The notes: a model not told the origin generated them from the letters alone. Shown: positions 16,370 to 50,198, numbered from the stretch's first letter. The stretch is DNA of 64,000 bases from Candidatus Aminicenantes bacterium UBA2199 (GCA_002327965.1 DCVB01000095.1:16659-80658); one strand, 5' to 3'. Numbers and translations: made by a program.

Positions 16370-16431
16370 TGGGGCATTATATCACAAGAACAAAATGAAC
16401 CGGGATCGCAGGCAATGAAGGATTGTCATAC

Positions 16432-16918
16432 GTGACGAGTGACGCGTAACGCGTGACGAGGCAGAACGGAACTTGGCGTAAGGTTCAGGGCGTAAGGCTC
16501 AGGGCAAGACAATGGCAAAATTAAAGACGCAGTTCGATGTTCGACGTTCGAAGTTCGACGTAGAAAGATTGAACATGACATTGAAAAGCAAAAGTTGTTA
16601 AACAAGAAATGCACTTGGCCTAATCCTGCCACCGATTGTCGATGCATTCATGCTGACACTGTCACTGACACTGACACTTGCCTTGGCTTTCGTTTTGGAA
16701 ATTGGAATTTGGAGCACAGATCTGCACTTTAGGAGAATATTTCTACACTGAATTACATTTTCTTCACTAACACTATCACTATCACTAACACTTTTTCTTG
16801 AGGGATTTGGTGCTTGGGATTTGGAATTTAAGTCTTCCGATTGCCTCTTTTCTTTCCGTAAACCGTAAACCGTCAACCGATTGCTTTGATGTCTTGCTGA
16901 CACTGTCACTGACACTGT
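16432..16918. repeat. Gene-free mosaic of 9 short-period arrays
   Basis: GTGACGN x4 (16432-16459); GCGTAAGGYTCAGG x2 (16476-16503); TTCGANG x4 (16533-16560); CTGACA/CTGTCA x4 (16653-16678); TTGGAAN x3 (16694-16714); CACTAN x5 (16765-16794); GATTTGG-type x4 (16804-16831); CCGTAAA x3 (16856-16879); CTGACA x4 (16897-16918). Confidence 0.9.
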
Positions 16919-20846: not shown

Positions 20847-22973
20847 GTGAATTCCCGGAGGTGCGTGATCGAGCGGATCAAGGTTCTTCTCGGATCGCTT
20901 CGGAATTTTCTGGACAAGGCCCGGGCCAGGATCCGGCCGGCGCTTGCCGCCGCGGGAGAGCGCTTGGCGGTACCGCGGCGCTTCCCGGCCCCCCGACGTC
21001 CGTGCACGGCCCTGCGGCATGCCGGCCTGATCGCGCTGGGCATCGTCGCTGCCTCGGCCCTGGCGTTCTTCGCTTTCCGCAACCTCGTCCTGCGCAACGT
21101 CCTCGACAACAGGATCCGCCACTTCACCCTGGGCCATCCTGCAATGACCGTCAAGATCGGCGGGGCACGATTCCGCGGCCTGGCCGGGATCGAGCTGCAG
21201 GAGATCCGGCTGCGGGCAAGCGACGGCTCGCTGGCGGTTTCCCTGGACCGGGCGCTGGTCGCCATGGCTCCCGGCAAAATGCTGCTGGGCAAGGTTCTCC
21301 CCCGGCGGCTGGCGCTGGACGGCCTGCAGGTCGACCTGCGGCCGGGGAATGCCCTGCCGTTGCCGGCGGCAGCCGCCGCGCCGGAAAAGTCCCAGGCGCG
21401 GGCGATGAAAGATCCGCCGGTTGCTGCCGGCCCGGCGCCGGACTTCGGGGCCCGGGTCGATCGCCTGCTGAACCTGTATTACCGCCTGATCCCCGACAGC
21501 GTACAGATCGACCGTTTCACCCTGCACAGCGTGATCGACGGCGTCCACCAGGCCCTTTATATCCCGAGGCTGGAATACCATGGGCCGGAGTTCGCAACCA
21601 CGGTCGAGGTGTTCGATCAGGGCCGTAAGTGGGCCTGCCGGGTTTCCGGCCTCGTCGAGCGCGAGCGGAAGCGGCTGGAGCTGCGCCTGCGCCCGGAACG
21701 TTCCACCCCCCTGCCATTCATGGAAAGGCAGTGGGGGCTTCGACTCGGCTTTGAATCGGCGAAGATGGTGCTGGCCAGCCGCGGCCGTTCCCGCGGCACA
21801 CTCACGCTCGAGGGTTCTCTGGCCTTGGGCGGCCTGGAGCTCAACCACCGGCGCGTGGCCGCCGACAACGTCATGGTGCCGATCGCCGTCCTCGACTATC
21901 GACTGGAGATCGGCCGCGACCATATTGAGCTGGGTGGGCCAACCCTGGCCCGGCTGCACAGGCTGCGTTTCCAGCCCCTCCTGCGCTTCGAGGCCCGGCC
22001 CGAGCGGCGCCTGCGCCTGCGCGTTCCCGAGACGCGCTTCGCCGCCGCCGACCTGTTCGCCTCGCTGCCGGCGGGCCTGTTCACCCGTTTGGCCGGCCTG
22101 CGCGCCGGCGGCGAGCTGGCCTTCCATCTCGACTTCGCCATCGACCTGTCGCGCCCCGAGGAGCTCGAGCTCGACGTCGACTTGAAAAAACACGGCTTCC
22201 GCATCCGCCGCTTCGGCAATGCCGATTTCCGCCACTTCGCCGACCCTTTCCAATATACGGTTTACGAGGGGGACCGGCCGCTGCGCTCCTTCGTGGTCGG
22301 CCCCGAGAACCCCGATTTCGTTCCCCTCAGCGACATCCCCGACTTCCTGAAGCACTCGGTGCTGATCTCCGAGGACGGCGCCTTCTTCAGCCACAGCGGT
22401 TTCCTGCTCGAGCCCTTCAAGGACTCGATCGCCGCCAACCTCAAGGCCGGGCGCTTCGTGCGCGGTGCCAGCACCATCTCCATGCAGCTGGTCAAGAACC
22501 TCTACCTGCGCCGGCACAAGACCATCGCCCGCAAGCTGGAGGAGCTGCTCATCACCTGGCTCATCGAGGCCAACCGCCTGGTCTCCAAGGAGCGCATGCT
22601 GGAAACCTACCTGAACATCATCGAGTGGGGGCCGGACGTCTATGGCGCCCGCGAGGCGGCCCGCTTTTATTTCGCCAGGGAGCCGGCGGCGCTGACCCTG
22701 GCCGAGGCCATATTCATGGCGGCGATCATCCCGCGCCCCAAGCGTTTCGCCGGCTTCTTCGGCGACGATCAAAAGTTGCGCCCCTGGCTGCAGGGCTATT
22801 ACATTGACGTTTCGCGCAAGATGCTGGCCCGCGGCTGGATCAGCCAGTTCGACTACGACATGCTGCTGCCCGAGGTCACGCTCACCGGCCCGGCGCGCTT
22901 GCTGCTGAAGGGCGCCGAAGCGGTCGAAGACGAACTGGTTCCGCCCACGCTGGATGAAAATGACCTGACGTGA
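20847..22973 (+). CDS. Peptidoglycan glycosyltransferase (GT51) with ~480 aa N-terminal membrane-anchored extension
   Basis: The C-terminal 220 aa carry GT51 motifs (ISEDGAFFSHSGF, GASTISMQLVKNLYL, RKLEELLITWLIE, ILETYLNIIEWG, GAREAARFYF). N-terminal TM segment followed by an AsmA-like repetitive beta-rich region. GTG start as given by the track. Confidence 0.75.
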   Translation: MNSRRCVIERIKVLLGSLRNFLDKARARIRPALAAAGERLAVPRRFPAPRRPCTALRHAGLIALGIVAASALAFFAFRNLVLRNVLDNRIRHFTLGHPAMTVKIGGARFRGLAGIELQEIRLRASDGSLAVSLDRALVAMAPGKMLLGKVLPRRLALDGLQVDLRPGNALPLPAAAAAPEKSQARAMKDPPVAAGPAPDFGARVDRLLNLYYRLIPDSVQIDRFTLHSVIDGVHQALYIPRLEYHGPEFATTVEVFDQGRKWACRVSGLVERERKRLELRLRPERSTPLPFMERQWGLRLGFESAKMVLASRGRSRGTLTLEGSLALGGLELNHRRVAADNVMVPIAVLDYRLEIGRDHIELGGPTLARLHRLRFQPLLRFEARPERRLRLRVPETRFAAADLFASLPAGLFTRLAGLRAGGELAFHLDFAIDLSRPEELELDVDLKKHGFRIRRFGNADFRHFADPFQYTVYEGDRPLRSFVVGPENPDFVPLSDIPDFLKHSVLISEDGAFFSHSGFLLEPFKDSIAANLKAGRFVRGASTISMQLVKNLYLRRHKTIARKLEELLITWLIEANRLVSKERMLETYLNIIEWGPDVYGAREAARFYFAREPAALTLAEAIFMAAIIPRPKRFAGFFGDDQKLRPWLQGYYIDVSRKMLARGWISQFDYDMLLPEVTLTGPARLLLKGAEAVEDELVPPTLDENDLT

Positions 22974-23103
22974 CGCATGACAAGTAGGCGAGAGGCTAGG
23001 GGCAAGGGGTGAGAGGGAAGAAGAAATGGCAATCGGTGTAAGGCGTAAGGTTTAAGGTAGCCCTCTTTTCTTCCCGTAAACCGTGAACCGTATACCGTAA
23101 ACC
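22964..23103 (+). repeat. Composite ~135-bp element, copy 1 (orientation opposite to copies 2-4)
   Basis: GTGACG-type units (overlapping the GT51 stop codon) - aagtaggcgagagg... - gggaagaagaaatggcaatcg - gtaaggc gtaaggt ttaaggt - tagccctcttttcttcc - cgtaaac x4. Near-identical to the reverse complement of 27010-27150. Confidence 0.9.
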
Positions 23104-23130
23104 AATTTCACTCAATGCCACTTAAGTTCA

Positions 23131-23316
23131 ATCTGATCTCCGGCTACCACTATCACTACCACTACCACTTATAACCCATTGAGTCTCTTGCTGACACTGA
23201 CACTGTCACTGACACTGAATTTCGCTCTGATCTCCTGCTACCACTATCACTAACACTAACACTTTTGCTCATAGAGCCTCTTGCTGACACTGACACTGTC
23301 ACTGACACTCAATATC
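23131..23316 (+). repeat. Tandem duplication of a ~94-bp unit (TACCAC/TATCAC hexamers + CTGACA hexamers)
   Basis: Unit 1 is 23131-23222 and unit 2 is 23225-23316. They align with few substitutions except a ~9-nt patch. A third, inverted, truncated copy lies at 26885-26950. Confidence 0.9.
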
Positions 23317-23325
23317 TGCTATAAC
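23317..23325 (+). promoter_or_regulatory. Extended -10-like element; possible leaderless start of panE
   Basis: TGcTATAAC ends 6 nt before ATG 23332. No SD. The upstream CTGACA/CTGTCA hexamer array supplies -35-like hexamers. Confidence 0.4.
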
Positions 23326-23331
23326 ACCTGC

Positions 23332-24240
23332 ATGGAGAATGCAACGGACAAGCGCAAGGTCGTGATCCTGGGTGGCGGGGCAATCGGTTCGGTCATCGCC
23401 GCCGCCCTGGCGCAAAAAGCGGAACTGGCGCCGGTTCTGATCGGCCGCCGCGACCACGTGCGGGCGATCCGCGACAACGGGCTGCAGGTCGAGGGCATGT
23501 TCGACGCTCCGGTCCGGCTCCAAGCCGGCGAAGCGGTTGACTTCCCCCTCGACGACACGCTGCTCGTGGTCACGGTCAAGGCCGGCGGCCTGCAGGCCTC
23601 GCTCCGCGCGCTGGCCCCCTGGCTGCGGCCGACGACCGCCGTTCTCCTGCTGCAGAACGGCCTGGGCATCAGGGAACTTGCCCTGGCGGCGCTGCGCGGC
23701 ACTCCGGCCCGCCAGGAGAACGTCTCAATCGGCATCGTGGCCATGGGCGCGACGCTCATCGGTCCCGGTCACGTGCGCTGCTTCAGCGGCAATGTCCGCG
23801 TCGAGCCGGCGTTCGCCGCGACACCGTTTTTCGCCATGCTGCAGGGCCTGGCGATCCAGGTCGTGGCCAGCAGGGACATCCAAAGGGACCTGTGGACCAA
23901 GCTGCTGGTCAACGCCGTGATCAACCCCCTGTCGGTGCTGCTGCAGGGGCACAACCGCCTGGTCGCCGAGGAGCGCTTCGACGCGCTCAAGGGGCCGATC
24001 CTGGCCGAGGGGCGCGCCGTGGCCGCCGCCGAGGGAGTGGAGATCGGCGTCGACGCCGCCTTCGTCAACCGCTTCGTCACCTCCGACAACATCACCTCCA
24101 TGCTGCAGGACTTCCGCCGCGGCCGGCCCACCGAGATCGACTTCATCAACGGCGCCATCGCGGAACTGGGCAGACGGCACGGCATCCCCACACCGGTCAA
24201 CGGCTACGTGACGGCATTGATCCATGCTTTGGAAGTATAA
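23332..24240 (+). CDS. panE: 2-dehydropantoate 2-reductase (ketopantoate reductase, ApbA/PanE family)
   Basis: ATG 23332 gives MENATDKRKVVILGGGAIGS (Rossmann GxGxxG) and a C-terminal ApbA_C domain (TSMLQDFRRGRPTEIDFINGAI). The upstream track codons read through a hexamer repeat. Confidence 0.85.
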   Translation: MENATDKRKVVILGGGAIGSVIAAALAQKAELAPVLIGRRDHVRAIRDNGLQVEGMFDAPVRLQAGEAVDFPLDDTLLVVTVKAGGLQASLRALAPWLRPTTAVLLLQNGLGIRELALAALRGTPARQENVSIGIVAMGATLIGPGHVRCFSGNVRVEPAFAATPFFAMLQGLAIQVVASRDIQRDLWTKLLVNAVINPLSVLLQGHNRLVAEERFDALKGPILAEGRAVAAAEGVEIGVDAAFVNRFVTSDNITSMLQDFRRGRPTEIDFINGAIAELGRRHGIPTPVNGYVTALIHALEV

Positions 24241-24253
24241 AAAACCTGATCTC

Positions 24254-24468
24254 GGTTGACGGTGTACGGTTTACGGTTTACGGGAAGAAAAGAGGACTAC
24301 CTTAAACCTTACGCCTTACACCGATTGCCATTTCTTCTTCCCTCTCACCCCTCGCCTACTCGTCACGCGTCACGAAGCTCGATGTCTTGTTCCTTCGCAT
24401 AACGCCTGACGCATGAAGACGGATCCTTTCTTTGCCGCCGCCGTACACCGTAAACCGTCCACCGTAAA
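24254..24468 (-). repeat. Composite element copy 2 plus GCATAAC-type array, bounded by inverted GGTTTAC / CCGTAAA arrays
   Basis: ggttgac ggtgtac ggtttac ggtttac (24254-24281) ... accttaa accttac gccttac ... tcgtcac gcgtcac (to 24374) ... gcataac gcctgac gcatgaa ... ccgtaca ccgtaaa ccgtcca ccgtaaa (24441-24468). Confidence 0.9.
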
Positions 24469-24474
24469 CGGTGA

Positions 24475-25131
24475 TCAATGGCCTCTTTCGGCGCGATAGG
24501 CTTTTTCCAGCAAATGCCGGATCAAAGGCCACAAGGCCGCGGGCAGGCCGAGGCCGATGAACAGCGGGTGCAGCGTGGGCAGGTCGAAGGCGAAGACGGG
24601 CCGGGTACCGAAAACGAAGGGGTGGAACTGCCAGAACTCGAGCCAGAAGACCGCCTGCACGATGAGGCAGAGGGCGCAGCCCTTGCCCACCTTGAAAACC
24701 TGGTAGGCCACCGAGAAGATCGTATAGGGCAGCGTCAGCAGGTTGAGCAGGCCCAGGTAGAGCGCCTGGTGGTAGAAGCCGGGGCTGAAGGCGGAAATGA
24801 GCAGAACCAGCAGCGTGCCGGCGAAGTAGAGCACCCCCAGGTCGGCCGTGTGGACGAGGCCGAGCACCGTTCCCGCCGGCGAGTCGATGACCCGCTTGCA
24901 GTCGAAGATGGGATTTCTCGGGCAGAAGCGCTTGAACACCGGTGCGTCCATGGTGCCCAGCACCAGCACGAAGGAGGCGAGCAGGCCGGCGACCTTCAGC
25001 AGCAGGATCAGGGCGCAGAGCTGCTCGTTGCCGCCGTGAAGGTAGAGGCGGACGAAGAAATAGCCCAGCAGCAGCATCAGGCCGGCGAAAGAAACGATGA
25101 GCGCGACGAAAGGCTTTCGCTGAACAGGCAT
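24475..25131 (-). CDS. Vitamin K epoxide reductase (VKOR) family membrane protein
   Basis: Polytopic membrane protein. Loop cysteine pair FCPRNPIFDC and in-membrane CxxC (GCALCL). Confidence 0.7.
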   Translation of the reverse strand: MPVQRKPFVALIVSFAGLMLLLGYFFVRLYLHGGNEQLCALILLLKVAGLLASFVLVLGTMDAPVFKRFCPRNPIFDCKRVIDSPAGTVLGLVHTADLGVLYFAGTLLVLLISAFSPGFYHQALYLGLLNLLTLPYTIFSVAYQVFKVGKGCALCLIVQAVFWLEFWQFHPFVFGTRPVFAFDLPTLHPLFIGLGLPAALWPLIRHLLEKAYRAERGH

Positions 25132-25150
25132 GATTTATTATAACACAGAG

Positions 25151-25178
25151 TTCGATGTTCGACGTTCGACGTTCGATG
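25151..25178. repeat. Heptamer array TTCGAYG x4
   Basis: ttcgatg ttcgacg ttcgacg ttcgatg, 17 nt upstream of the -35 box of the 25195 promoter. Same family as 16533-16560. Confidence 0.9.
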
Positions 25179-25194
25179 TTGAAGAAAACGGTCG

Positions 25195-25223
25195 TTGACA
25201 TTTTCTATCCCTGCTCTTAGAAT
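25195..25223 (+). promoter_or_regulatory. Promoter of the propeller-transglutaminase gene
   Basis: TTGACA-17 nt-TAGAAT. An SD (CAGGAGG) and ATG 25244 follow. Confidence 0.55.
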
Positions 25224-25243
25224 TAGTTTTCAGGAGGTCGTAC

Positions 25244-26860
25244 ATGAAAAAAATGACATTCACCGCCTTGGCAATTCTTTTCCTGGCGATCTTCCTGTTT
25301 TCCGGACCCGGCGCGGTGATCAAAAAGCTGCCCGCTCCGTCGCCCTGCGGCACCGGTCTGGCCTTTGACGGCCAGGCCTTCTGGACCGTGGACCGCGACA
25401 GCGACATGCTCTACCGCATCGATCCCTCCGATGGCAGGCTGCTGGCGTCGTTCGACGCCCCGGGCTACTTCTGCACCGCCCTGGCCTGGGACGGCAAGTC
25501 CCTCTGGGTGGCCGACATGGATTTCACCAACACCTCCGCCGAGGACTATTGCGGCAAGATCTACCAAATCGACCCGGCCAGCGGCCGCACCCTGAAGGTG
25601 ATCATGGCGCCGGGGTCCGACCCGCAGGGGCTGGCCTGGGACGGCAGGACCCTGTGGGTCTCCGACAACGGCAGCCGCGAGATCTTTCAGATCAGCCCCG
25701 AAGACGGGACGACGATCAGGACCCTGAAGGCCCCCGCCGGCGACCCGCGCGGCCTGGCCTGGGACGGGAATTACCTGTGGCTGGCCGACCGCTCGAAGGA
25801 CGAGCTCTACCGCATCGACCCGGTCAAGGGGCGCGTCATCATGGTCCTGCCCGCCCCCGGCCCCTATCCCTGGGGCATGACCTGGGCAAGGAACAGCCTG
25901 TGGGTCGCCGACTACCAGGATGACGAGATCGCCCAGGTCGCCGTCTTCGTGGACGGCGCGTACACGCGCGCCAAGGAGCGGAACGCCCTGGTTACCTTCA
26001 CCCACGACGTCATCAACTTCGGCCCCGGCACCGTGACCGATCTGGACGTCTACCTGGCCCTGCCCAAGCAGCGCTCCACCCAGGATATCCTGGCTGTCGA
26101 GTTCGCCGAGGTCCCGGATGCCAGGCTGACCGACCGCTGGGGCCAGGAGGTGGCCCGCTTCCGGAAAACCTCCCTCAAGCCCGGCGAACGCGCCTTGACC
26201 CGCATGCGCGTCAAGGCCAAAATTTACGACGTGATGTACCATCTCTTCCCGGAGAAGGCGGGAACGCTGAAGGACATCCCCGCCGACGTGCGCAACCGCT
26301 ACCTGGCCGATGACGACAAGTACCGCCTCAAGGATCCGGTCATTCAGGCGGCGGTCAAGGAGGCTGTCACCCGTCCGGACAACCCCTACTGGATCGCCCG
26401 CGACCTCTACGACTGGCTGCACGACAAGATGGTCTACCAGCGCATCGGCGGCTGGGATGTGGCGCCCACGGTGCTGCAGCGCGGCTCGGGTTCCTGCTCG
26501 GAGTACGCCTTCGTCTACATCGCCATGTGCCGCGCCGCCGGGCTGCCGGCGCGCTACGCGGGCTCGGTGGTCGTGCGCGGCGAGGACGCCAGCTTCGACT
26601 TCGTCTACCATCGCTGGGTGGAGGTCTACCTGCCCAACAGCGGCTGGGTGCCGGTCGATCCCAGCGGCGGCGACCAGGAGTCCACGCGCGACCAGGCCAT
26701 GTACTTCGGCCACCTGGAGAACCGCTTCCTGATCACCACCGAGAGCGGCGGCGGCTCCGAGTACCTGAAGTGGGACTACAACTCCTCGGAGAGCTGGCAG
26801 GCCGACGGCCGCGTGCAATTGCGGCTGGAAATGATCGCCGATTGGGACAGGCTCGAGTAA
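25244..26860 (+). CDS. Secreted beta-propeller (glutamine cyclotransferase-like repeats) fused to transglutaminase-like cysteine protease domain
   Basis: SD CAGGAGG and a signal peptide. Five repeats of the type GLAWDGxxLWVAD. C-terminal transglutaminase core GSGSCSEYAFVYIAMCRAAGLPARY...HRWVEVYL...VPVDPS (Cys-His-Asp). Confidence 0.8.
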   Translation: MKKMTFTALAILFLAIFLFSGPGAVIKKLPAPSPCGTGLAFDGQAFWTVDRDSDMLYRIDPSDGRLLASFDAPGYFCTALAWDGKSLWVADMDFTNTSAEDYCGKIYQIDPASGRTLKVIMAPGSDPQGLAWDGRTLWVSDNGSREIFQISPEDGTTIRTLKAPAGDPRGLAWDGNYLWLADRSKDELYRIDPVKGRVIMVLPAPGPYPWGMTWARNSLWVADYQDDEIAQVAVFVDGAYTRAKERNALVTFTHDVINFGPGTVTDLDVYLALPKQRSTQDILAVEFAEVPDARLTDRWGQEVARFRKTSLKPGERALTRMRVKAKIYDVMYHLFPEKAGTLKDIPADVRNRYLADDDKYRLKDPVIQAAVKEAVTRPDNPYWIARDLYDWLHDKMVYQRIGGWDVAPTVLQRGSGSCSEYAFVYIAMCRAAGLPARYAGSVVVRGEDASFDFVYHRWVEVYLPNSGWVPVDPSGGDQESTRDQAMYFGHLENRFLITTESGGGSEYLKWDYNSSESWQADGRVQLRLEMIADWDRLE

Positions 26861-26884
26861 CCGGCAAGAAACTCAACGAACTCC

Positions 26885-26997
26885 TAGTGTCAGCAAGCGG
26901 CCTTATGGGTATAAGTGGTAGTGGTAGTGATAGTGGTAGCCGGAGATTAGAAGGAACTCTTGTTCTTTCGCATAACACCTGACGCATAACGATAAGT
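26885..26997 (-). repeat. Inverted copy of the 94-bp unit (GTGGTA hexamers x4) followed by GCATAAC-type heptamers
   Basis: The reverse complement of 26885-26950 matches 23131-23200 (ctccggctaccactatcactaccactaccacttata...cttgctgacact). gcataac acctgac gcataac gataagt lies at 26970-26997. Confidence 0.85.
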
Positions 26998-27009
26998 ACC
27001 ATTGCAATT

Positions 27010-27150
27010 GGTTTACGGTATACGGTTCACGGTTTACGGGAAGAAAAGAGGGCTACCTTAAACCTTACGCCTTACACCGAATGCCATTTCTTCTTCCCAC
27101 TCACCCCTAGCCCCTCGCCCCTCGCCTACTTGTCACGCGTCACGCGTCAC
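27010..27150 (-). repeat. Composite ~135-bp element, copy 3
   Basis: ggtttac ggtatac ggttcac ggtttac - gggaagaaaagagggct - accttaa accttac gccttac - accgaatgccatttcttcttccc - (tcacccc tagcccc tcgcccc tcgccta) - ttgtcac gcgtcac gcgtcac. Confidence 0.9.
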
Positions 27151-27173
27151 AAAGATCGATCTCTTGCTCTTTC

Positions 27174-27262
27174 GCATAACGCATAACGCATAACGCTTAA
27201 CGCATAACGATAAGTACCAATGCCAGTCATTGCATTCGGTTCACGGTGGACGGATTACGGTT
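27174..27262. repeat. GCATAAC heptamers x6 followed by GGTTNAC heptamers x4
   Basis: gcataac x3 gcttaac gcataac gataagt (27174-27215); ggttcac ggtggac ggattac ggttcgt (27238-27262). This repeats the module order seen at 26970-27037. Confidence 0.9.
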
Positions 27263-27466
27263 CGTCATTCTTTTGACCTCCTGCCGCGTTCCTCCAATTT
27301 GGGACTCACTGATTTTCGCCGGAACCGCTTCATTGCGCTTCCCCGTGAACAAATGGCCGATCCGCTGCGTATATTTCCACAGCGTGTCAGGAAGATACCC
27401 CCCGGTCCCCAACGGCTTGATGCATGGAATCGGGAGGCTGGCGGCACGCGCAAGGAGAAACGGCAG

Positions 27467-28771
27467 ATGGGCAATGGAAAAAACGGTAGAAAAGTGAAGT
27501 CGCGCAAAAAAATCGTCTGGATCGCGGTGGGGAGCCTCATCCTCCTGCTGATACTGAAATCGGTCGTATGCGGCAAGAGGGATCCCGGCATCACGGTGCA
27601 GACCGAGAAGGCCGCCCGGCGGGACATCACCCAGCTGGTGTCGGCCACCGGTATCATCAATCCCGTCTACCAGGTCGTCATCACCCCGGAAGTGACCGGC
27701 GAGATCGTCGAGCTGCCGGTCCAGGAAGGCGATCGCGTAAAAAGGAACCAGCTGCTGATCCGCATCAAACCTGACTCCTATGCCGCCCAGCGCGATCGGG
27801 CCCAGGCCAACCTGGAATCAGCCCAGGCCAACCTGGGGATCCGCCGGATCGAGAAAGGATACATCGAAAGCAATTTCAAGCGCACCGAGGAGCTCTTCCG
27901 CAGCGGCGTAACGAACCAGCAGGAACTGGAAAAAATGAAGGCCGACCTGGCCTCCAGCATCGCCCAACTGGAGGCGCAAAAAGCCATGGTCCAGCAGGCG
28001 GAGGCGGCTCTTAAGGAGTCCAGCGAGAACCTGAAAAAGACCGCCATCTACTCGCCGATGGACGGCACGGTCAGCCAACTCAACGTCGAGCTGGGCGAAC
28101 GCGTGCTGGGCAGCGGCTTCAGTCAGGGCACCAACCTGATGACCGTGGCCGACCTGGGCAAGATGGAGGCGATCGTCGACGTGGACGAGAACGACGTCGT
28201 GCTGGTGTCGATCGGCGACACGGCCAAGATCGAACTCGACGCATTCAAGAACACCACGTATAACGGCGAGGTCACCCAGATCGCCAATTCCGCCAAGACG
28301 ACCGGCCAGGGCACCCAGCAGGAGGTGGTCAATTTCGCCATCAAGATCGCTCTCAGCGACTTCAATTCCCAAGTCCGGCCGGGCATGTCCTGCAACGCCG
28401 ACATCGAGGTCGAGACCAAGGACAACGTGCTGACGGTCCCGATCCAGAGCGTCACCGCCCGCTCCGCGGAGGAAGCCGCGGCCGGCACAACGCCGGACTC
28501 CAGCCGCGAGCTGATCGTTGGCAAGACCAGCAAGAAAAAGCAGTCCAAGCCCAAGGAGGTCGTCTTCGTGGTGGACAAGGACACCGTGGCCATGAAAGAG
28601 GTGAAGATCGGCATCAGCGACAACGAATACATCGAGATCATCTCGGGCCTGAAGCAGGGCGAGGAAGTGGTCAGCGGTCCCTACCGTGCCATATCCAGCG
28701 AGCTGCAGGACAAGACCAAGGTGAAGCTGGAAAGTAAGGGCAAAGCCGGGAAGGGCGGGAAAAAAAACTGA
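27467..28771 (+). CDS. macA: Efflux transporter periplasmic adaptor (HlyD/MacA family)
   Basis: AAGGAG upstream of ATG 27467. N-terminal TM anchor, coiled-coil hairpin, lipoyl and beta-barrel domains ([19 protein letters not shown]). Confidence 0.85.
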
Positions 28772-28790
28772 GGCCGCAAGCCGAGACAAC

Positions 28791-29501
28791 ATGAACATCA
28801 TTAATCTGGAAAACATTTCCCGGGTATACCAGGTCGGCTCCGAAGAAGTCCATGCCCTGGACGACGTGTCCCTGAAGATCGACCGCAACGAGTACGTGGC
28901 CATCATGGGTCCTTCGGGCTCGGGAAAATCGACACTGATGAACATCGTGGGCTGCCTGGACACGCCGACGAGCGGCTCGTACATCCTGAAGGGGACAAAT
29001 GTCAGCGACATGAGCGACAACGATCTGGCCGAGGTGCGCAACCGCGAGATCGGCTTCGTTTTCCAGACCTTCAACCTGCTGCCCCGCGCCACCTCCTTTC
29101 ACAACGTTGAACTGCCTCTGATCTACGCCGGCGTCCCCGCCGCCGAGCGCCGCGAGAAGGCCGAGCAGGCCCTGTCCAGCGTCGGCCTGAAGGAGCGCAT
29201 GCTGCACAAGCCGAACGAGCTTTCCGGCGGCCAGCGCCAGCGCGTCGCCGTGGCCCGGGCGCTGGTAGTCGGCCCATCGATCATCCTGGCTGACGAGCCG
29301 ACCGGCAACCTCGATTCCAAGACCGGCGAGGACATCATGGCCCTGTTCCACGAGATCTACCAGCTGGGCAACACCATCATCCTGGTCACGCACGAGGAAT
29401 ACATCGCCAACCACGCCAAGCGCGTCATCCGCCTGCTGGACGGCAAGGTGGAGAGCGACAAGACGGTAACGAACTGCACCGTTCCCAATCGGGGGAATTA
29501 G
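28791..29501 (+). CDS. macB: ABC transporter ATP-binding protein (MacB/LolD type)
   Basis: Walker [10 protein letters not shown], signature [15 protein letters not shown], Walker [12 protein letters not shown]. Confidence 0.9.
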
Positions 29502-29503
29502 CC

Positions 29504-30735
<1,232 letters not shown>

Positions 30736-30736
<1 letters not shown>

Positions 30737-31962
30737 TGAAATTCTGGGAAGTCCTGAAGGTCGCCTTCGCCTCGCTGCGCGGCAACAAGCTGCGCTCCTC
30801 GCTGACCGTGCTGGGTATCGTTATCGGCATTTTCTCCATCATCTCCATCAGCACCGTGATCACCATGCTGCAGAACTCCATCAACGAGGGGCTGTCGAGT
30901 CTGGGAAAAAACACATTCCAGATCCAGAAGTTCCCGGCCATGCAGCAGGGGCGCCTGAGCGACAAGATCCGCAACCGCAAGAACCTGACCATTGAGGAGT
31001 ACTACCGGCTGCGCGAGATGCTCGACGAGGCCAAGCTGGTCGGCGCCGAGCAGTGGCAGTTCGGCAAGCTCTTCAAGTCGCAATATGACGAGACCAACGC
31101 CAATATCCAGCTGGCCGGCGCCACCCCCGAGGCCATGCTGACCAACGACTGGCAGATCGCCGACGGCCGCTCAATCAACCAGGACGACATGGACCGCAAC
31201 CGGCGCGTCTGCGTGCTGGGCGTCGACGTGGCCAGGAAGCTTTTCCCACGCGTCGACCCGCTGGGCCAGGAGATCAAGGTCGACGGGTTGCGCCTGGACG
31301 TCATCGGCGTCCTCGTGACCCGGGGCGCTATGTTCGGGCAGTCGCGCGACGGCTTCGTGGTCGCGCCGCTCTCCACCTTCCAGGCCAAGTACGGCAAGAC
31401 CAGCCGCAGCGTCAACATCACGGTCATGGCCCACAGCCCGGTCACCTACAACCGCACCATCGACGCCGCCATCGGCCACATGCGCACCATCCGCAAGGTG
31501 GCGCCGGGAGAGGAGAACGACTTCGACATCTTCTCCAACGAGTCGCTGATCTCGCAGGTGGGCCAGATCACCCAGTACGTGCGCCTGGGCGCTATCGTCA
31601 TCGCTTTCATCGCGCTGCTGGCCGCAGGCGTCGGCATCATGAACATCATGCTGGTCTCGGTGACCGAGCGTACGCGCGAGATCGGCATCCGCAAGGCCAT
31701 CGGCGCCAAAAAACGCAACATCCTTTTCCAGTTCCTGGTCGAGGCCGTCACCCTGTGCCAGTTCGGCGGAATCATCGGCATCGTTTTGGGCCTGAGCGCC
31801 GGCAACCTGGCCGGCAAGGCCCTGAATGCCGCCCCGGCCGTGCCGCTCGACTGGGTGCTGGCCGGCATCGGCCTCTGCGTGCTGGTCGGCGTCGGCTTCG
31901 GCACCTACCCGGCCTGGAAGGCGGCCAACCTGGACCCCATCGAGGCATTGCGCTACGAATAG
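30736..31962 (+). CDS. ABC transporter permease, second paralog (MacB_PCD + FtsX)
   Basis: ATG 30736 overlaps the preceding TAA by 1 nt (MKFWEVLKVAFASLRGNKLRS). FtsX motif ERTREIGIRKAIGAKKRNI. The 812 aa track ORF (29524..) is a frame artefact upstream of this start. Confidence 0.85.
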
Positions 31963-32130
31963 TGAGGCGTAACGCGTGACGCGTGACGCGAAGTATGCAA
32001 AAGCAATTTCCGGACTGCTGAGTAATGGCAAATGAAAAACAACAAAGGATCTTTTGCCAACACGGGACCATTTCTCGGAAATCGGTTTTCTATTGCTTTT
32101 TCGCGTTACACGTTATGCGTCACGCGTCAC
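31962..32130. repeat. Inverted pair of GTGACGC-type arrays between convergent genes
   Basis: gtgaggc gtaacgc gtgacgc gtgacgc (31962-31989) and gcgttac acgttat gcgtcac gcgtcac (32103-32130). The second array encodes the last codons and the stop of gltS. Confidence 0.9.
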
Positions 32131-33499
32131 GTTGGCTCGTTCCGTCTCCTCCCGGCCACGGCTTCAGGCGGAACCAGCCGCTCAGCAGCGACACCAACCA
32201 GAAGAAGGCCATGATCCCGGCGGCGAGGGCCAGCGCCCGCCAGGCGCCATAGCGGACGATCAGGAAGGGGGCGGTGGCGGTGACCAGCCCGCCGCCCAGC
32301 AGCGGTTCGTAGACCATCTGCTTGAAGCCGAAGGCCTCGGCCGTGCCGGTGTCGTACAGCGGGTCGACCAGCCGCAGCAGCAGCAGGCCGATGGCGGTCA
32401 CGCCGCTCTGCATGCCGTACTCGGTGACGCCGCGCTCGAGCCAGTAGCGCGGGAACATGCGCGGCGCCAGCACGGCCAGGGTGAAGAACAGCCAGGCGAT
32501 GCCCGCGGCCATCAGCAGCAGGAACGGCCAGAAATTGGTCACGAAAAGATCGAGGCGCATGGTGGCGATGGCCGCCACCACCAGCAGGTCGATGGAAAAT
32601 CCGAGGATGCGCTCGAAGGTGTCGCGGTCGAAGTAGCGGTCGACGCGCAGCGGCCGCGCCAGCGCCTGGATGAGCAGGCCGCCGATCATGGCCAGGGGGA
32701 AGAGCGGGAAACCGCGCAGCAGCGGATGCAGGGCGCGCACGCCGCCCAGCATGATCCAGCCCAGGAGCACGGCCAGCGCCACCAGGGCGAAGTGGAAAGC
32801 GAACGGCTCCAGCGAATCCGGCGAGACCGTGGCGTGGGCGATCGGGAAACGCTGCTCCCGGCTCAGCAGGCCGGAAGAGGGGCGGCGCAACGCCGCACCA
32901 TGGCCCGGGCCCAGGGTGCGGTAACCCCGGCGCAGGGCGATGTTGATGAACAGGATGCCGCCGACCACGGCGGTGATGATGCCCACGGTGGCCGACATCT
33001 GCGCCAGGGCCGCTCCGGCCGGGAAACCGACCTCCTGGAAGACCCCGGCCATGCCCGCGGCCGTGCCGTGGCCGCCGGAAAAGCCGATCTCGAGGATGCA
33101 GGCAAAGACCGGCGGCACGCCGAAAACCGGCGAAAGAACCAGCAGGGTGAGCAGCAGGGCGACGACGTACTGGCCCAGCCCGGCCACCAGGCCGAAGCAG
33201 AGCTGTGCCCCGCCCTGGTTCCAGATGGCGCGCATCCCCGGCAGGGCGACGCCCAGGAACAGGCTGGCAAACACGATGTTGATCAGCAGCCCGGGGACCT
33301 GCGCCCACTCGCGCCCCACCCAGGCTGGCAGCAAATCGAGCAGATAGGGGCCGCAGGCCAGGGCGATGAAGCCGCCCAGGATCGAGGAAGGCAGGTAGAG
33401 GGTCTGGAACAGGCGCACGGCCACGCGCAGCGCCTTGCCGAGCAGGAGAAAGAGGCCCAGCAGGCAGAAGCTGAAGAACAGGGCGCTGGCTCCTTCCAT
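32120..33499 (-). CDS. gltS: Sodium/glutamate symporter (GltS family)
   Basis: 459 aa polytopic membrane protein. GltS-like N-terminus (LLGLFLLLGKALRVAVRLFQTLYLPSSILGGF). The last 4 codons and the stop lie inside a GTGACGC heptamer array. Confidence 0.8.
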   Translation of the reverse strand: MEGASALFFSFCLLGLFLLLGKALRVAVRLFQTLYLPSSILGGFIALACGPYLLDLLPAWVGREWAQVPGLLINIVFASLFLGVALPGMRAIWNQGGAQLCFGLVAGLGQYVVALLLTLLVLSPVFGVPPVFACILEIGFSGGHGTAAGMAGVFQEVGFPAGAALAQMSATVGIITAVVGGILFINIALRRGYRTLGPGHGAALRRPSSGLLSREQRFPIAHATVSPDSLEPFAFHFALVALAVLLGWIMLGGVRALHPLLRGFPLFPLAMIGGLLIQALARPLRVDRYFDRDTFERILGFSIDLLVVAAIATMRLDLFVTNFWPFLLLMAAGIAWLFFTLAVLAPRMFPRYWLERGVTEYGMQSGVTAIGLLLLRLVDPLYDTGTAEAFGFKQMVYEPLLGGGLVTATAPFLIVRYGAWRALALAAGIMAFFWLVSLLSGWFRLKPWPGGDGTSQRDA

Positions 33500-33656
33500 G
33501 GCGATGATACTCCGGGGCGGCCTTCACAACCGTCGCCGCCGCAGCTAACCTTAGCCGACCCAATGGGCGAAGTCAAGACAAGGGGATCCCCGGACAGGAA
33601 TGTGCCGCCGGTGATCGGGAATTCTTTTTCGACGTTCCCGGATTTCGTTGCTCCGC

Positions 33657-34436
33657 CTATTTTGCTTCGCGGATCGCCTGCTCCAGCCGGGGATTGATCC
33701 GGACCTTCTGCTGGCCGGCCCGCTCCAGCCACTCGCGCGCCTTGTCCAGGCGCCGGGTGACGAAATAGACGTTGATCAGGTTGTTCAGGCAGCGCTCGTG
33801 GGCGGGCTCGCTGGCCAGCGCCAGCAGGTACTGGCCCTCGGCCTCATCCAGGCGCCGCAGCTTGAAGAGAAGATTGCCGTGCAGGACCTGGAACTCGGCC
33901 GGGATCTCGAAGGGGGAAGCGGCGCCTCCGATGACCTCGGCGGTGGCCCGGCCGGTCTTCTTGCTCTCGTAGGCGCGGTCCACGGAGACGCAGGCCAGGC
34001 TGCTGGTGCTGCCGCCGATGCTCTGGGCGGCGAGCTCGCGCATGCGCTTCTCGTCCTCCCTGGACATCGACAGCCAGTTCGTTTTCTGATTTTCCCACAC
34101 CTGCTGCAGGGCGAGACAACCCTTCTCGGCCCGCTCGATCCAGGCGAGCGCCGCGGCGATCTCCCCCGCCTGGTTGGCGACGACCGCCTTGCCATAGGCG
34201 GCGTTGGGGTGCCCGGGCAGGATCGCCAGGCAGCGGTCGAGCTCCTTGCCGGCCTGCTCCCAGTTCCCGGCCGCCGCCAGCTCGAGACCGCTGTTCGCCG
34301 CCGGCAGGGCCGAGTGGTACTTGCGCAGCATATCAATGTCCTGTTCCAGACTGGTGCTTTTCTGGGCCGGGAGCGCCAGCGCGAACAAGAAGCAAACGCC
34401 GCAGATGGAAACGAGTCGTTGCTTGTTTTTCATCAT
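33657..34436 (-). CDS. Secreted TPR-repeat protein
   Basis: AGGTGA SD upstream of ATGATG 34436 and signal peptide MMKNKQRLVSICGVCFLFALALPAQ. Several TPR-like helical repeats (AAYGKAVVANQAGEIAAALAWIERA...). Confidence 0.7.
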   Translation of the reverse strand: MMKNKQRLVSICGVCFLFALALPAQKSTSLEQDIDMLRKYHSALPAANSGLELAAAGNWEQAGKELDRCLAILPGHPNAAYGKAVVANQAGEIAAALAWIERAEKGCLALQQVWENQKTNWLSMSREDEKRMRELAAQSIGGSTSSLACVSVDRAYESKKTGRATAEVIGGAASPFEIPAEFQVLHGNLLFKLRRLDEAEGQYLLALASEPAHERCLNNLINVYFVTRRLDKAREWLERAGQQKVRINPRLEQAIREAK

Positions 34437-34510
34437 GATCTCACCTGAATGAATTATACCATAGTGAGGTTCAAACCAACCGCTTCTGCAGGAATCAAGA
34501 CGATCCAAAA

Positions 34511-34746
34511 GTGTGAGTGATAGTGTTGGCGTTAGCGGGAACCAAGGAAATCGGTTTACGGTGGACGGTTTCCAAAGCAAAGAACAAGCGATTGTTGATG
34601 GGTAGAAGAGTAGAAGGGTTGATGGGTTAGCAGCCCTTGATTGGGCCATGCCTGAACCCTTCAACTCTTGAACTCTTTAACTCTTCAACTTTTTTGTTTG
34701 GGTCAAAGTCCCTGCCCGGGGAAATGTTAGTGACAGTGTCAGCAGG
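34511..34746. repeat. Mosaic including two period-8 arrays
   Basis: gtgtga gtgata gtgttg (34511-); ggtttac ggtggac ggtttcc (34552-34573); gttgatgg gtagaaga gtagaagg gttgatgg gttagcag (34593-34632); cttcaact cttgaact ctttaact cttcaact (34658-34689); gtgaca gtgtca (34730-34741). Confidence 0.85.
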
Positions 34747-34760
34747 AAATGAAAGGAATC

Positions 34761-34894
34761 GGTTTACGGTGGACGGTTTACGGTTTACGGGAAGAAAAGA
34801 TGGCTACCTTAAACCTTACGCCTTACACCGATTGCCATTTCTTCTTCTCTCTCACCCCAAGCCCCTAGCCTCTCGCCTACTCGTCACGCGTCAC
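34761..34894 (-). repeat. Composite ~135-bp element, copy 4
   Basis: ggtttac ggtggac ggtttac ggtttac - gggaagaaaagatggct - accttaa accttac gccttac - accgattgccatttcttcttctc - tcacccc aagcccc tagcctc tcgccta - ctcgtcac gcgtcac. Lies directly downstream of the DprA-like gene. Confidence 0.9.
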
Positions 34895-41560: not shown

Positions 41561-42364
41561 ATGGAAAAAATAACCCTGGACGGCATTACGCTGTTCTTTG
41601 CTGCCCGGGATCGCGAGGCGGCCGGATGGATGGGCGCCGCCGCCGGGGAGGCGCTGCGCCTGGTTCGCGAACGCTGGGGGCTGGCGCCGCGGGGCGGGTT
41701 CCAGGTCCACGCCATGACCTCGTGGGCCGGATTTCTCGTCGCCACCGCTCCCTGGTCACTGCGCCCCTGGCTGGTCCTCTCCCTGCCCCTTTGGGTTTCC
41801 CGGGTCGCAAAGACCTGGAGAATGGCCGGCGGCTGGACGCAGCGCTTCGGCAGCAGGGTGGCGGTGGGAGTCAAGCCGCCGCGCCTGCTACTGGCCGCCG
41901 ACCGCTCCCTGGGCGAGCGGCTTTTCCTGTCCGAGCCCGACGTGCAGGGCAAAGTGCGGCAGATCACCTGGCACGAAACGGTCCATGCCTGCTCGCTCCA
42001 TCACAAGCTCCCTGCCTGGCTGAACGAAGGGCTGGCCATGGTTGCCGTCGACCGGCTCGCAGGCAAGCCGACCGTCCGCCCCGAGACCCTGTCCTGGCTT
42101 TTGGAGTCGGCCAAGACGAAGCCGGGCCGCCGCTATCCGTCCCATTATCGGGGCAACGGCGAGGCATTCCTGAGCCTCTACGCCCGGGGCTACTGGCGGG
42201 TGCGCTTCCTGGAGGAGACGCGGTCCGGGCTGCTGAAGGAGCTCCTGGCCGTGAGACGCAGTCCAGATGAATGGCTGCCCCCTTTCGCCGAAGCCTGCGG
42301 GCTCCCTGATGGCTCCGGCTGGGCGGAAGTGGACCTGGCTGTGGTCAGGCACTTCGAGCAATAG
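41561..42364 (+). CDS. Putative zinc metallopeptidase (HExxH, peptidase-MA-like)
   Basis: HETVH motif followed by NEGLAMV, as in gluzincin-type proteins. Full TTGCCA-17-TAGAAT promoter ends 5 nt before the ATG (leaderless). Confidence 0.55.
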   Translation: MEKITLDGITLFFAARDREAAGWMGAAAGEALRLVRERWGLAPRGGFQVHAMTSWAGFLVATAPWSLRPWLVLSLPLWVSRVAKTWRMAGGWTQRFGSRVAVGVKPPRLLLAADRSLGERLFLSEPDVQGKVRQITWHETVHACSLHHKLPAWLNEGLAMVAVDRLAGKPTVRPETLSWLLESAKTKPGRRYPSHYRGNGEAFLSLYARGYWRVRFLEETRSGLLKELLAVRRSPDEWLPPFAEACGLPDGSGWAEVDLAVVRHFEQ

Positions 42365-42378
42365 CCCCGGCGTGTGGC

Positions 42379-42478
42379 TTAAGGCGTAAGGTGGAATTCC
42401 TTTCTTCCCATAAACCTTAAGCCTTCTACCTTAAACCGATTTCATCTCAAGGCAGTCACCGTCTACCGTAAACCGATT
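42379..42478. repeat. Mosaic: TTAAGGC/GTAAGGT, CTTNNNC heptamers x4, ACCGTNN heptamers x3
   Basis: ttaaggc gtaaggt (42379-42392); cataaac cttaagc cttctac cttaaac (42409-42436); accgtct accgtaa accgatt (42458-42478). aaaccgatttc occurs twice. Confidence 0.85.
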
Positions 42479-49888: not shown

Positions 49889-49920
49889 CCCGCCTTTTGT
49901 CACTGCCAGTAGATAGAATC

Positions 49921-50198
49921 GGTTTACGGTAGACGGTTCACGGTTTACGGAAAGAGAAAAGGCAATATGAAGACTTAAATTCCAAATCCCAAGCACCAAA
50001 TTCCAAACAAATTCCAAGCTCCAAATTCCAATTTCCAAAACGAAAGCCCCTTGGAATGGCATTTTCTTCGTTTTGGTCATTGAATCAAAGTCCCCGCTAA
50101 GGGGATTGGAATTTGGAATTTATTTGGGATTTGGGATTTGGTGCTTGGAATTTAATTCTTCACTTGTCACTTGTCACGCGTCACGCGTTACGCGTCAC
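49921..50198 (-). repeat. Variant composite element: same termini as copies 2-4, but the cargo is replaced by an inverted pair of ATTCCAA / TTGGAAT arrays
   Basis: agaatc ggtttac ggtagac ggttcac ggtttac (49921-49948); period-7 CCA arrays 49982-50005 and 50014-50037; mirrored TGG arrays 50104-50120 and 50122-50152; tcttcac ttgtcac ttgtcac gcgtcac gcgttac gcgtcac gatagatcc (50157-50198 and following). Compare the copy 4 ends, ggaatcggtttacgg ... gcgtcacgatggatcc. Confidence 0.9.

Follow-up and report, generated by a model that had tools for sequence, protein, structure and literature searches.

Mosaic cassettes of heptamer arrays between the genes of a Candidatus Aminicenantes bacterium: four copies of a composite intergenic repeat and its relatives

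The window analysed here is a 64,000-nucleotide stretch from Candidatus Aminicenantes bacterium UBA2199 (GCA_002327965.1 DCVB01000095.1:16659-80658), which has a G+C content of 65% and whose nearest relatives are metagenome-assembled genomes (MAGs) of Candidatus Aminicenantes. A gene map drawn from codon usage and checked with Pfam places in it four copies of a composite element of ~135 bp, here termed type A, all of them intergenic and lying between unrelated housekeeping genes. An initial annotation, made from the sequence alone, had located these copies where Table 1 lists them, and alignment bears this out. With middling confidence, they are interpreted here as one haplotype of a clade-specific mosaic intergenic repeat, whose cassettes would have spread by duplication and recombination and would act at the 3' ends of genes. 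The observations on which this reading is built are the anatomy of the element, its enrichment at gene 3' ends, its retention at orthologous sites, the gain and loss of whole units, the shuffling of modules and the conservation of its core above that of the flanking genes.

All four copies harbour the same ordered string of modules, as the initial annotation had described it. The strand labels given there were swapped with respect to its own module string, which starts with GGTTTAC and in that direction lies on the + strand for copies 2-4 and on the - strand for copy 1, although the relative orientation of the copies was right. Read on the canonical strand, with GTGACGC first (+ for copy 1, - for copies 2-4), the element consists of two to three GTGACGC units, AGTAGGCGAG, one to three GGGGCNA-type units and GGGTGAGAGGGAAGAAGAAATGGCAATCG, followed by GTGTAAGG CGTAAGG TTTAAGG, TAGCCCTCTTTTCTTCCC and four GTAAACC-type units. 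Copy 1 thus runs through GTGACGC-type units, AGTAGGCGAG, GGGGCNA units, the GGGAAGAAGAAA arm, the TAAGG array and the TCTTTTCTTCCC arm to GTAAACC x4. Across the common ~135 nt, pairwise identity among the copies is 91.9-95.6%, and a core of 77 nt, GGGGTGAGAGGGAAGAAGAAATGGCAATCGGTGTAAGGCGTAAGGTTTAAGGTAGCCCTCTTTTCTTCCCGTAAACC, differs at only one to four positions between any two of them (97-99% identical). A search by nhmmer with a profile made from the copies themselves recovered all four at E = 1e-43 to 1e-50, far above chance. The variation in unit number that had been noted proved to consist of whole heptamers: copy 2 is shorter by exactly 14 nt, which the alignment identifies as two units of the GGGGCNA/CCCCT-type run, and copy 3 is longer by 7 nt, with three GTGACGC units where the other copies have two.

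The 135 bp are merely the portion common to all copies, and longer modules flank some of them. Copies 2 and 3 have in common a 5' extension of ~55 nt, composed of a GTTATGC-type array and the linker AAAGARCAAGA-ATCGA-CTT, and copies 1 and 3 a 3' module of ~47 nt, CTRATCTCCGGCTACCACTATCACTACCACTACCACTTATA(A)CCCAT, which contains a CTACCA array. The CTACCA module that ends the 3' extension of copy 3 is also found in the DNA downstream of copy 1. Around copy 3, positions 27151-27260 and 26960-27009 form a higher-order unit of ~215 nt present in ~1.5 copies. The 93-bp repeat at 23143-23331, downstream of copy 1, is a further higher-order tandem duplication of array modules, with an 84% match between its two copies. 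All four type A copies fall within 12 kb of the approximately 76 kb of source genome covered, and the extra 12 kb of source genome beyond the window hold no further type A copy. That the four might be the only copies and the product of a local segmental duplication, a possibility raised in the initial annotation, holds in part: given their clustering within 12 kb and the longer duplicated segment common to copies 1 and 3, local duplication has contributed to them, but the family is not limited to these copies and occurs in other Aminicenantes genomes as well.

The type A copies form part of a far wider system. Tandem Repeats Finder revealed intergenic DNA throughout the window to be made up of arrays, each of about four imperfect 6-8-mers. 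A census of arrays of period 6-8 over 150 kb, comprising the window and seven related loci, counted 101 in the intergenic 15% of the DNA and 26 in the coding 85%, so that arrays are ~22 times denser outside genes. Period 7 accounts for 80 of the 101 intergenic arrays, with a median of 4.1 units and 3-4.9 units in 58 of the 80; octamer arrays are rare (4/101). Of the 24 window spacers with a length of 60 nt or more, 15 hold one or more arrays, and density per kb is 8.6 in convergent, 7.0 in co-directional and 2.8 in divergent spacers. The same units recur at unrelated sites (GTGACGC, CCGTNNN/GTAAACC, GTAAGGN, GGGGCNA, GTTATGC, GTTCGAN, AAATTCC and CTGACA), and both their order and the unique linkers between them recur as well. 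Thus the pyrimidine tract (A/G)TTGCCTCTTTTCTTTCC precedes an array that begins with CCGTAAA and is followed by ATT(G/T/C)C, and GTTATGC units come before AAAGARCAAGA-ATCGA-CTT, which in turn leads into GTGACGC units. Relatives whose PanE is at least 72% identical to that of the window have 3-15 arrays per 10 kb, a density that drops to 0.9 at 68% and to 0 at 58%; the system is therefore specific to this clade. The GTTATGC x6 array at 27173-27213 matches heptamer arrays in unannotated stretches of Klebsiella pneumoniae plasmids (95% over 41 nt), probably through chance convergence of a simple repeat, and beyond this similarity the plasmid and phage collections returned no match.

Anchoring at stop codons is a second general property. 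In ~12 of ~20 cases, counted manually among the arrays and composites examined, a GTGACGC array starts 0-42 nt past a co-oriented stop codon; three stop codons are themselves part of an array. The TGA stop of the transglycosylase gene (22971-22973) falls inside the first GTGACGC unit of copy 1, and stop codons of real genes also fall within or touch GTGACGC arrays at 31960-31962 and at 32120-32122, where the first 9 nt of the array are still read as part of the gene. Among relatives, the transglycosylase varies in the length and sequence of its C-terminal tail, which in the window ends within copy 1. Genes can end inside GTGACGC and GTAAACC arrays because these units carry stops in all three frames. 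As a general reason for the heptamer period this property was rejected, as stop-containing units amount to 43 of 80 against an expectation of 47.5%.

Distribution among genomes was approached by an exact-match scan with a 24-mer of the core over one genome per species, in which only two Candidatus Aminicenantes MAGs matched, whilst a first metagenome scan with the same 24-mer gave no match. A second metagenome scan, with the 3' module, yielded two loci, L025 and L026, and syntenic relatives, likewise denoted below by their locus numbers, were found via PanE homologues and contigs. Four other assemblies, from four samples, represent the same strain; they are 99.9-100% identical over 2.6-18 kb and have the same unit numbers, which excludes an assembly artefact or a fast-slipping locus. 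One of them, L008, ends at the copies (24323 and 26958). The slippage within arrays that had been suggested for the copies finds agreement in whole-unit indels between orthologues, but the five assemblies of the strain display no unit-number polymorphism. A phase-variation or contingency locus was rejected on the absence of length change in the four other assemblies and on the nature of the neighbours, which are unrelated housekeeping genes.

At the site of copy 2, L001 retains the entire spacer at ~92% column identity, whereas the flanking genes are 77-83% identical, and only two indels occur in 250 nt, each of exactly 7 nt and each in one of two arrays. The cores of the window and of L001 differ at 1-3 of 77 positions and are hence as alike between genomes as within one. 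With copy 2 at the same site in both genomes and the core equally similar within and between them, the recent spread proposed in the initial annotation becomes unnecessary. Other relatives have a different hairpin at this convergent site: GTTCGAN x4 ... NTCGAAC x4 in L009, L011 and L014, and, in L017 and L019, ACGG x4 ... CCGT x4, whose loop is short and whose panE-proximal end is that of the window. The gene that converges with panE in these two loci encodes an acetyltransferase instead of VKOR. Because the hairpin of these two loci shares the panE-proximal end of the window, it looks as if the type A interior was added within an older CCGT hairpin, and at the panE/VKOR site the hairpin has been retained and its sequence replaced. 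A further stretch of L017 (7990-8260), between the acetyltransferase gene and a transglutaminase-like gene, contains two tandem hairpins of ~110 nt with arms of ACGG/CCGT heptamer arrays, ending in GGCTTTCC-CGTAAACC and without the type A interior.

Modules are also shuffled between sites and genomes. At the site of copy 1, L009 has a diverged composite of a related subtype, type B, in the same orientation and 12 nt past the stop codon, L019 has a GTGACGC array, and L011 and L014 have neither; these two are not true empty sites because gene content between the transglycosylase gene and panE differs. The site of copy 3 is occupied in L011 by GTGACGC x5 ... GTAAACC x2 in the same antisense orientation, with a different interior. 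Target-site duplications and empty sites, which the initial annotation had proposed to look for, were not found: each orthologous site is occupied by the same element, a related one or a different array hairpin. In the MAG UBA2190 the left half of type A (identical over ~45 nt) is joined, three times, to an AAATTCC inverted repeat, and a full composite, though diverged, stands next to a tRNA gene in L026. For most other orthologous spacers identity is only 32-59%, against 76-95% for their flanking genes, and comparison of spacers module by module reveals blocks gained and lost. The window from 24241 to 32119 is itself a mosaic with respect to L011, in which PanE has 78% nucleotide identity and the nearby transglutaminase-like and FtsX genes 95-96%, a pattern that suggests frequent recombination between these Aminicenantes lineages. 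In L009, an island of 8.8 kb (11033-19850) stands between panE and VKOR, with genes for a phage-type integrase, an HTH_17 (excisionase-like) protein and an AAA_25 protein; the GTTCGAC-type units at either end suggest integration into the 3' arm of the GTTCGAN-array hairpin, and the GTTCGAN array may be the attachment site of the island.

Table 1. Coordinates of type A copies, their extensions and related composites in the window (positions counted from its first nucleotide)
Feature	Position	Strand	Composition and setting	Basis
Long sibling mosaic	16428..16883	+	450-nt string of eight arrays; antisense to flanking genes	
Copy 1, type A, 5'-truncated	22964..23103	+	Between transglycosylase gene and panE	Alignment, nhmmer
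93-bp unit x2 (higher-order tandem)	23143..23331	+	CTACCA and CTGACA hexamer arrays plus linkers; downstream of copy 1	
Complete nested form around copy 2	24245..24475	-	Fills convergent panE/VKOR spacer	Folding, orthologue in L001
Copy 2, type A, minus two GGGGCNA units	24254..24374	-	Embedded in complete nested structure; between panE and VKOR-family gene (convergent); sense, downstream of VKOR	Alignment, nhmmer
3' extension of copy 3	26900..27009	-	AATTGCAATGGTACTTATC, GTTATGC-type units, AAAGAACAAGAG, CTACCA hexamer array	
Copy 3, type A	27010..27150	-	Between transglutaminase-like gene and HlyD-type gene; antisense to both flanking + strand genes	Alignment
Copy 3 modules (+ coordinates): GTGACGC x3	27130-27150			
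Copy 3 modules: GGGGCNA units	27100-27120			
Copy 3 modules: 5' arm	27087-27098			
Copy 3 modules: TAAGG array	27056-27077			
Copy 3 modules: 3' arm	27038-27049			
Copy 3 modules: GTAAACC x4	27010-27037			
5' extension of copy 3	27151..27260	-	CCGTNNN array (27237-27260), linker, GTTATGC x6 (27173-27213), AAAGAGCAAGAGATCGATCTTT linker	
Inverted-array hairpin	31962..32131	not assigned	GTGACGC x4 and GCGTCAC x4; fills convergent spacer	
Copy 4, type A, 5'-truncated	34761..34894	-	Between dprA and TPR gene; sense, starts 17 nt past dprA stop codon	
Type B relative, 5'-truncated	42360..42478	+	TAAGG units, GGAATTCC, CTTTCTTCCC, CCTTAAG-type array, CCGTNNN array	
Sibling composite	49918..50199	-	GTGACGC x5, long AAATTCC/GGAATTT inverted repeat, CCTTTTCTCTTTCC, GTAAACC x4, GATTC	

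The window also contains more distant relatives of type A (Table 1). The type B element was recovered by nhmmer at E = 1e-10, together with fragments elsewhere; it begins at the stop codon of the upstream gene and is of the same subtype as the composite at the copy-1 site in L009. Two sibling composites share the ends of type A, namely a GTGACGC array at the start and a pyrimidine tract, GTAAACC array and GATTNC at the end, and differ in their interiors. The longer of them runs in the order GTGACGA x4, GGCGTAAGG units, GTTCGAN x4, CTGACA x4, TCACTA x5, GGAATTT units, CCTCTTTTCTTTCC and GTAAACC x3. The other is preceded, at a distance of 24 nt, by a stop codon and followed by a canonical terminator. 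This terminator (49866-49905) is G+C-rich and bidirectional, GGCGGGCCCCCCCC-ATGTAG-CGGGGGGGGTG followed by a T-run, and separates the composite from a small convergent gene (49525-49812). L025, the orthologue of the window from 46.8 to 50.2 kb at 72% identity, keeps both composite and terminator at ~80% column identity, the terminator nearly unchanged. In the inverted-array hairpin of the convergent spacer at 31962-32131, both flanking stop codons touch the arrays or fall inside them. Downstream of copy 4, inverted 8-mer arrays at 34594-34690 (4.5 units of the GTTGAAGA type and 4.4 of its imperfect complement) form another hairpin. Two arrays are made of units foreign to the main set: 2.2 copies of an 18-nt unit, CCGGAAAAAAGGATATCC, at 37131-37169 and, in or near a divergent spacer, 6.5 copies of the hexamer GCCGTG at 37834-37872. 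A tRNA/tmRNA scan of the window detected neither.

Folding predictions were considered for the copies and their surroundings. For each of the four copies a hairpin is predicted between GGGAAGAAGA and UCUUUUCUUCCC whose loop holds the UAAGG array, as had been proposed from the complementarity of these two sequences. Among these copies only copy 2 is complete. Its 231-nt spacer is predicted to adopt a nested fold of -88 kcal/mol (z = -4.54; 0/200 shuffles as stable), in which an outer stem between the upstream GGUUUAC array and the GUAAACC array encloses two inner hairpins, the first between the GUUAUGC-type array and the GUGACGC array, for which G.U pairs are required, and the second being the core GGGAAGAAGA/UCUUUUCUUCCC hairpin. 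The opposite strand is weaker by 17.7 kcal/mol, because the GUUAUGC x GUGACGC stem and the core stem both use G.U pairs. The orthologous region of L001 is predicted to fold in the same way (z = -4.31), and strong predictions are also obtained for other inverted-array hairpins, at 31958-32135 (z = -6.7) and at the sibling composite (49915-50205, z = -7.4). Display of UAAGG in a loop did not prove to be a general layout, as in type B the TAAGG array is a stem arm paired with the CCTTA array, and the siblings keep the pyrimidine tract without the purine arm.

The reading that we favour, that of a mosaic intergenic repeat acting at gene 3' ends, would assemble these features as follows. Arrays of about four imperfect heptamers (some hexamers and octamers), drawn from a small shared set of units, are joined by short unique linkers in a recurring order, and complementary arrays provide the arms of long nested hairpins at the 3' ends of genes. 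Complete type A, represented by copy 2, is a predicted nested hairpin of ~230 nt filling a convergent spacer; copies 1 and 4 are 5'-truncated versions that begin at or just past the stop codon of the upstream gene, and copy 3 is an antisense copy within a higher-order tandem duplication. Instead of transposing, cassettes would spread through duplication, tandem or segmental, and be reshuffled where shared arrays and linkers allow recombination or gene conversion. They change in length by whole units, whilst the unique linkers and the type A core appear constrained in sequence. By analogy with repetitive extragenic palindromic (REP) sequences, the bacterial interspersed mosaic elements (BIMEs) of E. 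coli and the short tandemly repeated repetitive (STRR) sequences of cyanobacteria, the hairpins could act in cis at gene 3' ends by protecting or insulating the ends of transcripts. The periodic single-stranded heptamers and invariant linkers could also be binding sites for a sequence-specific factor, for example OB-fold proteins, whose footprint is ~7 nt.

A number of points weigh against this interpretation. The copies taken alone fold no better than shuffled sequence (z = -0.96 to +0.28), and the additional sequence helps little, with z = -1.1 for copy 3 plus its 5' extension and z = 0.2 and -1.7 for the whole spacers of copies 1 and 4; in the predicted structures, three of the four copies (1, 3 and 4) are left with 'orphan' arms. 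Orientation relative to genes is mixed, copy 3, the mosaic at 16428-16883 and the orthologues of both being antisense, and among 38 co-directional spacers the sense strand is the more stable in 14 and the antisense strand in 24 (p = 0.2). Of the 72 base pairs of the copy 2 structure compared between the window and L001, 62 are unchanged, and a single compensatory and three one-sided changes stand against six broken pairs; substitutions affect 12 of 144 paired columns against 4 of 87 unpaired ones, so that unpaired positions are the better conserved. What is visibly conserved is the primary sequence of linkers and core, not pairing. The composite at 49918-50199 precedes a canonical terminator and so is not itself the terminator there. 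Depletion from promoter regions would be expected equally of tolerated selfish or neutral DNA, and the mosaic divergence of neighbouring genes (76-96%) means that recent recombination could inflate the apparent constraint. The cis function at 3' ends is, moreover, one that we infer by analogy.

Several of these points also bear on a structured non-coding RNA, which the initial annotation had put forward. According to this explanation, the strand running from GUGACGC to GUAAACC is transcribed, either from a gene of its own or as a regulator derived from a 3' untranslated region, and its hairpin shows three UAAGG motifs to a protein or RNA. The hairpin predicted in all four copies is in keeping with this, as are the stability of the complete copy 2 fold on this strand in particular, attained via G.U pairs, the 97-99% conservation of the core between genomes whose genes are ~80% identical and the exclusion of a coding role by the 7-nt indels. 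The explanation nevertheless appears unlikely. The 135-nt copies do not fold better than shuffles and covariation is negligible, with an RNAalifold term of 0.07 over seven diverged hairpins, only few diverged copies being available; the L001 comparison yields more broken than compensated pairs, and loops are better conserved than stems. The siblings without a purine arm and the paired TAAGG array of type B do not fit the proposed display, and copy 3 and other composites are antisense, with no recognisable promoter. Rfam gave no match over the 64 kb at its gathering score and, with the threshold relaxed to E <= 10 around copy 3, a single hit at chance level (E = 6.9).

More specific identities were also considered and rejected. 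A canonical intrinsic terminator is contradicted by the sequence that follows the core hairpin, CCGUAAACC, and the hairpins of copies 1-4 are not followed by a U-tract; in a consensus scan from 16 to 36 kb none of the sites fell at the copies, and their number was 13 against 17 expected from shuffles, and at 49918-50199 a separate terminator follows the composite. A G-quadruplex in the GGGGCNA run is not a conserved feature, as the copies have just 2-4 G-tracts. A mini open reading frame of nine codons in the core, GAGGG-N9-ATG GCA ATC GGT GTA AGG CGT AAG GTT TAA (MAIGVRRKV*), loses its ATG in L026 and in type B, and a coding role is further ruled out by the 7-nt indels between orthologues; its N-terminus is retained in the UBA2190 variants. 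A putative resemblance of AAGGTAGCC, CCGTA and TAGGGG to the 3' end of 16S rRNA is given no weight here.

It is likewise improbable that the arrays are a functionless by-product, that is, heptamer microsatellites born of replication slippage, to which units of 7 nt are reportedly prone, and spread by local duplication into gene 3' ends, where they do no harm. A simple slippage origin is excluded because independent local slippage cannot yield the same units and unique linkers at dozens of unrelated sites in several genomes. Whole-unit indels between orthologues, the higher-order tandem duplications, the clustering of the four copies, the fast turnover of most orthologous spacers and the structurally 'orphan' state of three copies would all follow from a neutral history, and heptamers are the commonest long simple sequence repeats in many bacteria, for which slippage has been proposed, as far as the work of Mrazek (2007) is relayed by PMC4679880 and PMC4692102. 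Against such a history stand the better conservation of core and linkers than of flanking genes, an array length held narrowly to about four imperfect units, the constancy of length in five assemblies of the strain and the maintenance of a hairpin at the panE/VKOR site despite its replaced sequence.

A further alternative places the function in double-stranded DNA, with the arrays and linkers as sites for a nucleoid-associated, methylation/restriction, uptake or recombination protein and their orientation to transcription of no consequence. Mixed orientation, the absence of a folding bias towards the sense strand and the conservation of primary sequence instead of pairing would all be accounted for, and the integrase island of L009 lies inside a GTTCGAN array. 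Many units and linkers also contain 6-bp palindromes like those at which restriction/modification systems typically act: GTGACGC arrays include ACGCGT, GTTCGAN arrays include TTCGAA, and the linkers include GGATCC, ATCGAT and GAATTC, with examples at 24400-24420, 27155-27170 and 31962-32131 of the window and at L011:9925-10075. We nonetheless regard this alternative as quite doubtful, as GTGACGC arrays prefer one orientation just past co-oriented stops, one stem forms with G.U pairs on one strand only, and the binding is putative, a candidate protein not being known.

A bolder reading would take the arrays as a genome-wide 'heptamer code', in which 7-nt words from a limited set, in runs of about four and set in fixed order after stop codons, are read by dedicated single-strand-binding proteins (cold-shock, S1 or Rho-type OB folds, with a footprint of ~7 nt per monomer). 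Although a rather improbable proposition, it would, if true, mean that bound proteins set the 3'-end processing, stability or termination of a large share of the operons of the clade, that the invariant type A core is a high-affinity site for one such factor, and that cyanobacterial STRRs and similar repeats have their first mechanistic explanation.

Recent insertion of a miniature non-autonomous transposon at four sites, akin to miniature inverted-repeat transposable elements (MITEs) or REPINs, can hardly be right: four near-identical dispersed copies in both orientations, the break of the independent assembly L008 at the copies and the presence of copies in other genomes recall such an element, but terminal inverted repeats are lacking (the 5' end matches the reverse complement of the 3' end at just 7-8 of 20 positions), as are target-site duplications, boundaries vary between copies, L001 has an orthologue of copy 2, related elements of unchanged orientation occupy the copy-1 site of L009 and the copy-3 site of L011, chimeras exist module by module, and no transposase was seen next to any copy.

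Heptamer arrays in the intergenic DNA of cyanobacteria have been known since 1990, those of Xanthomonas and Beggiatoaceae became known later, and none of them has an accepted function. The Aminicenantes clade is unusually rich in that it combines many unit types, a recurring order, invariant linkers, stop-codon anchoring, conservation above that of neighbouring genes and hairpin swaps at orthologous sites, and because of this combination the choice between a transcript-end signal, a protein-binding platform and tolerated junk becomes testable by comparative genomics and metatranscriptomics. There are practical consequences too: metagenome assemblies break at these repeats, as does L008, one of the four others of the strain, real genes take their stop codons from them, and anyone looking for mobile elements or non-coding RNAs in the phylum would be misled by them.

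In comparison with known systems, the position of the arrays right after stop codons and between convergent genes, together with the very stable predicted hairpins of complete forms, recalls intrinsic (Rho-independent) terminators; the type A hairpins differ in having no U-tract and no terminator site in the scan, and the composite at 49918-50199 is followed by a terminator of its own. The pneumococcal BOX element (boxA, several boxB, boxC) is reportedly a modular intergenic repeat with a variable number of internal units that is transcribed with its neighbours and forms stable structures; its internal unit is said to be ~45 nt, its ends mutually complementary and its behaviour MITE-like. The present element, by contrast, has units of 7 nt and ends that lack complementarity, and target-site duplications are absent. 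REP/BIME elements of Enterobacteria and REPINs of Pseudomonas (PMC3116915) are closer: they too are species-specific and intergenic, favour gene 3' ends and convergent spacers, form hairpins, and combine fixed linker motifs into mosaics of variable composition whose sequence is uniform within a clade. They differ in that the arms here are tandem heptamer arrays and not a single palindrome of 20-40 nt, and many arrays have no inverted partner. In addition, no gene for RAYT (an IS200-like tyrosine transposase) was seen adjoining any copy within the ~76 kb of source genome covered, and spread here points to duplication and recombination and not to excision and insertion.

The closest parallel is with the cyanobacterial STRRs and other intergenic heptamer arrays, GGGNATC in Xanthomonas and Nostoc (PMC4692102) and TAACTGA in Beggiatoaceae (PMC4679880), the REP/BIME mosaics being close as well. 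These are likewise short, non-coding tandem heptamers with a preference for about four units; they lie near stop codons, are depleted between divergent genes, occupy the same intergenic sites in relatives with variable patterns, can form stem-loops where inverted, have no tie to particular gene functions and are of a function that is not known. GGGNATC repeats in particular prefer four units, lie within 50 bp of stops, are depleted from divergent spacers and vary in pattern at the same sites (PMC4692102), and TAACTGA repeats have been proposed to match the heptamer footprint of cold-shock (OB-fold) proteins (PMC4679880). In the present system, correspondingly, tandem arrays of period 7 and few units are found in non-coding DNA with a bias to gene ends and an under-representation in divergent spacers. 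None of the published units CCCCAGT, TTGGTCA, CAACAGT, TAACTGA, GGGAATC and GGGGAYT occurs in tandem in the window, and no pairing of Aminicenantes with these repeat terms was found in the full text of the open-access papers and preprints searched. Unlike the STRR-type arrays, potential for G-quadruplexes is not conserved here (2-4 G-tracts), the host is an uncultured Aminicenantes clade, more than 15 unit types co-exist with invariant unique linkers in a recurring order, and composite cassettes of 135-450 nt are copied as blocks. The system differs from the known ones in the units themselves, the number of unit types that co-exist and their fixed order with invariant linkers.

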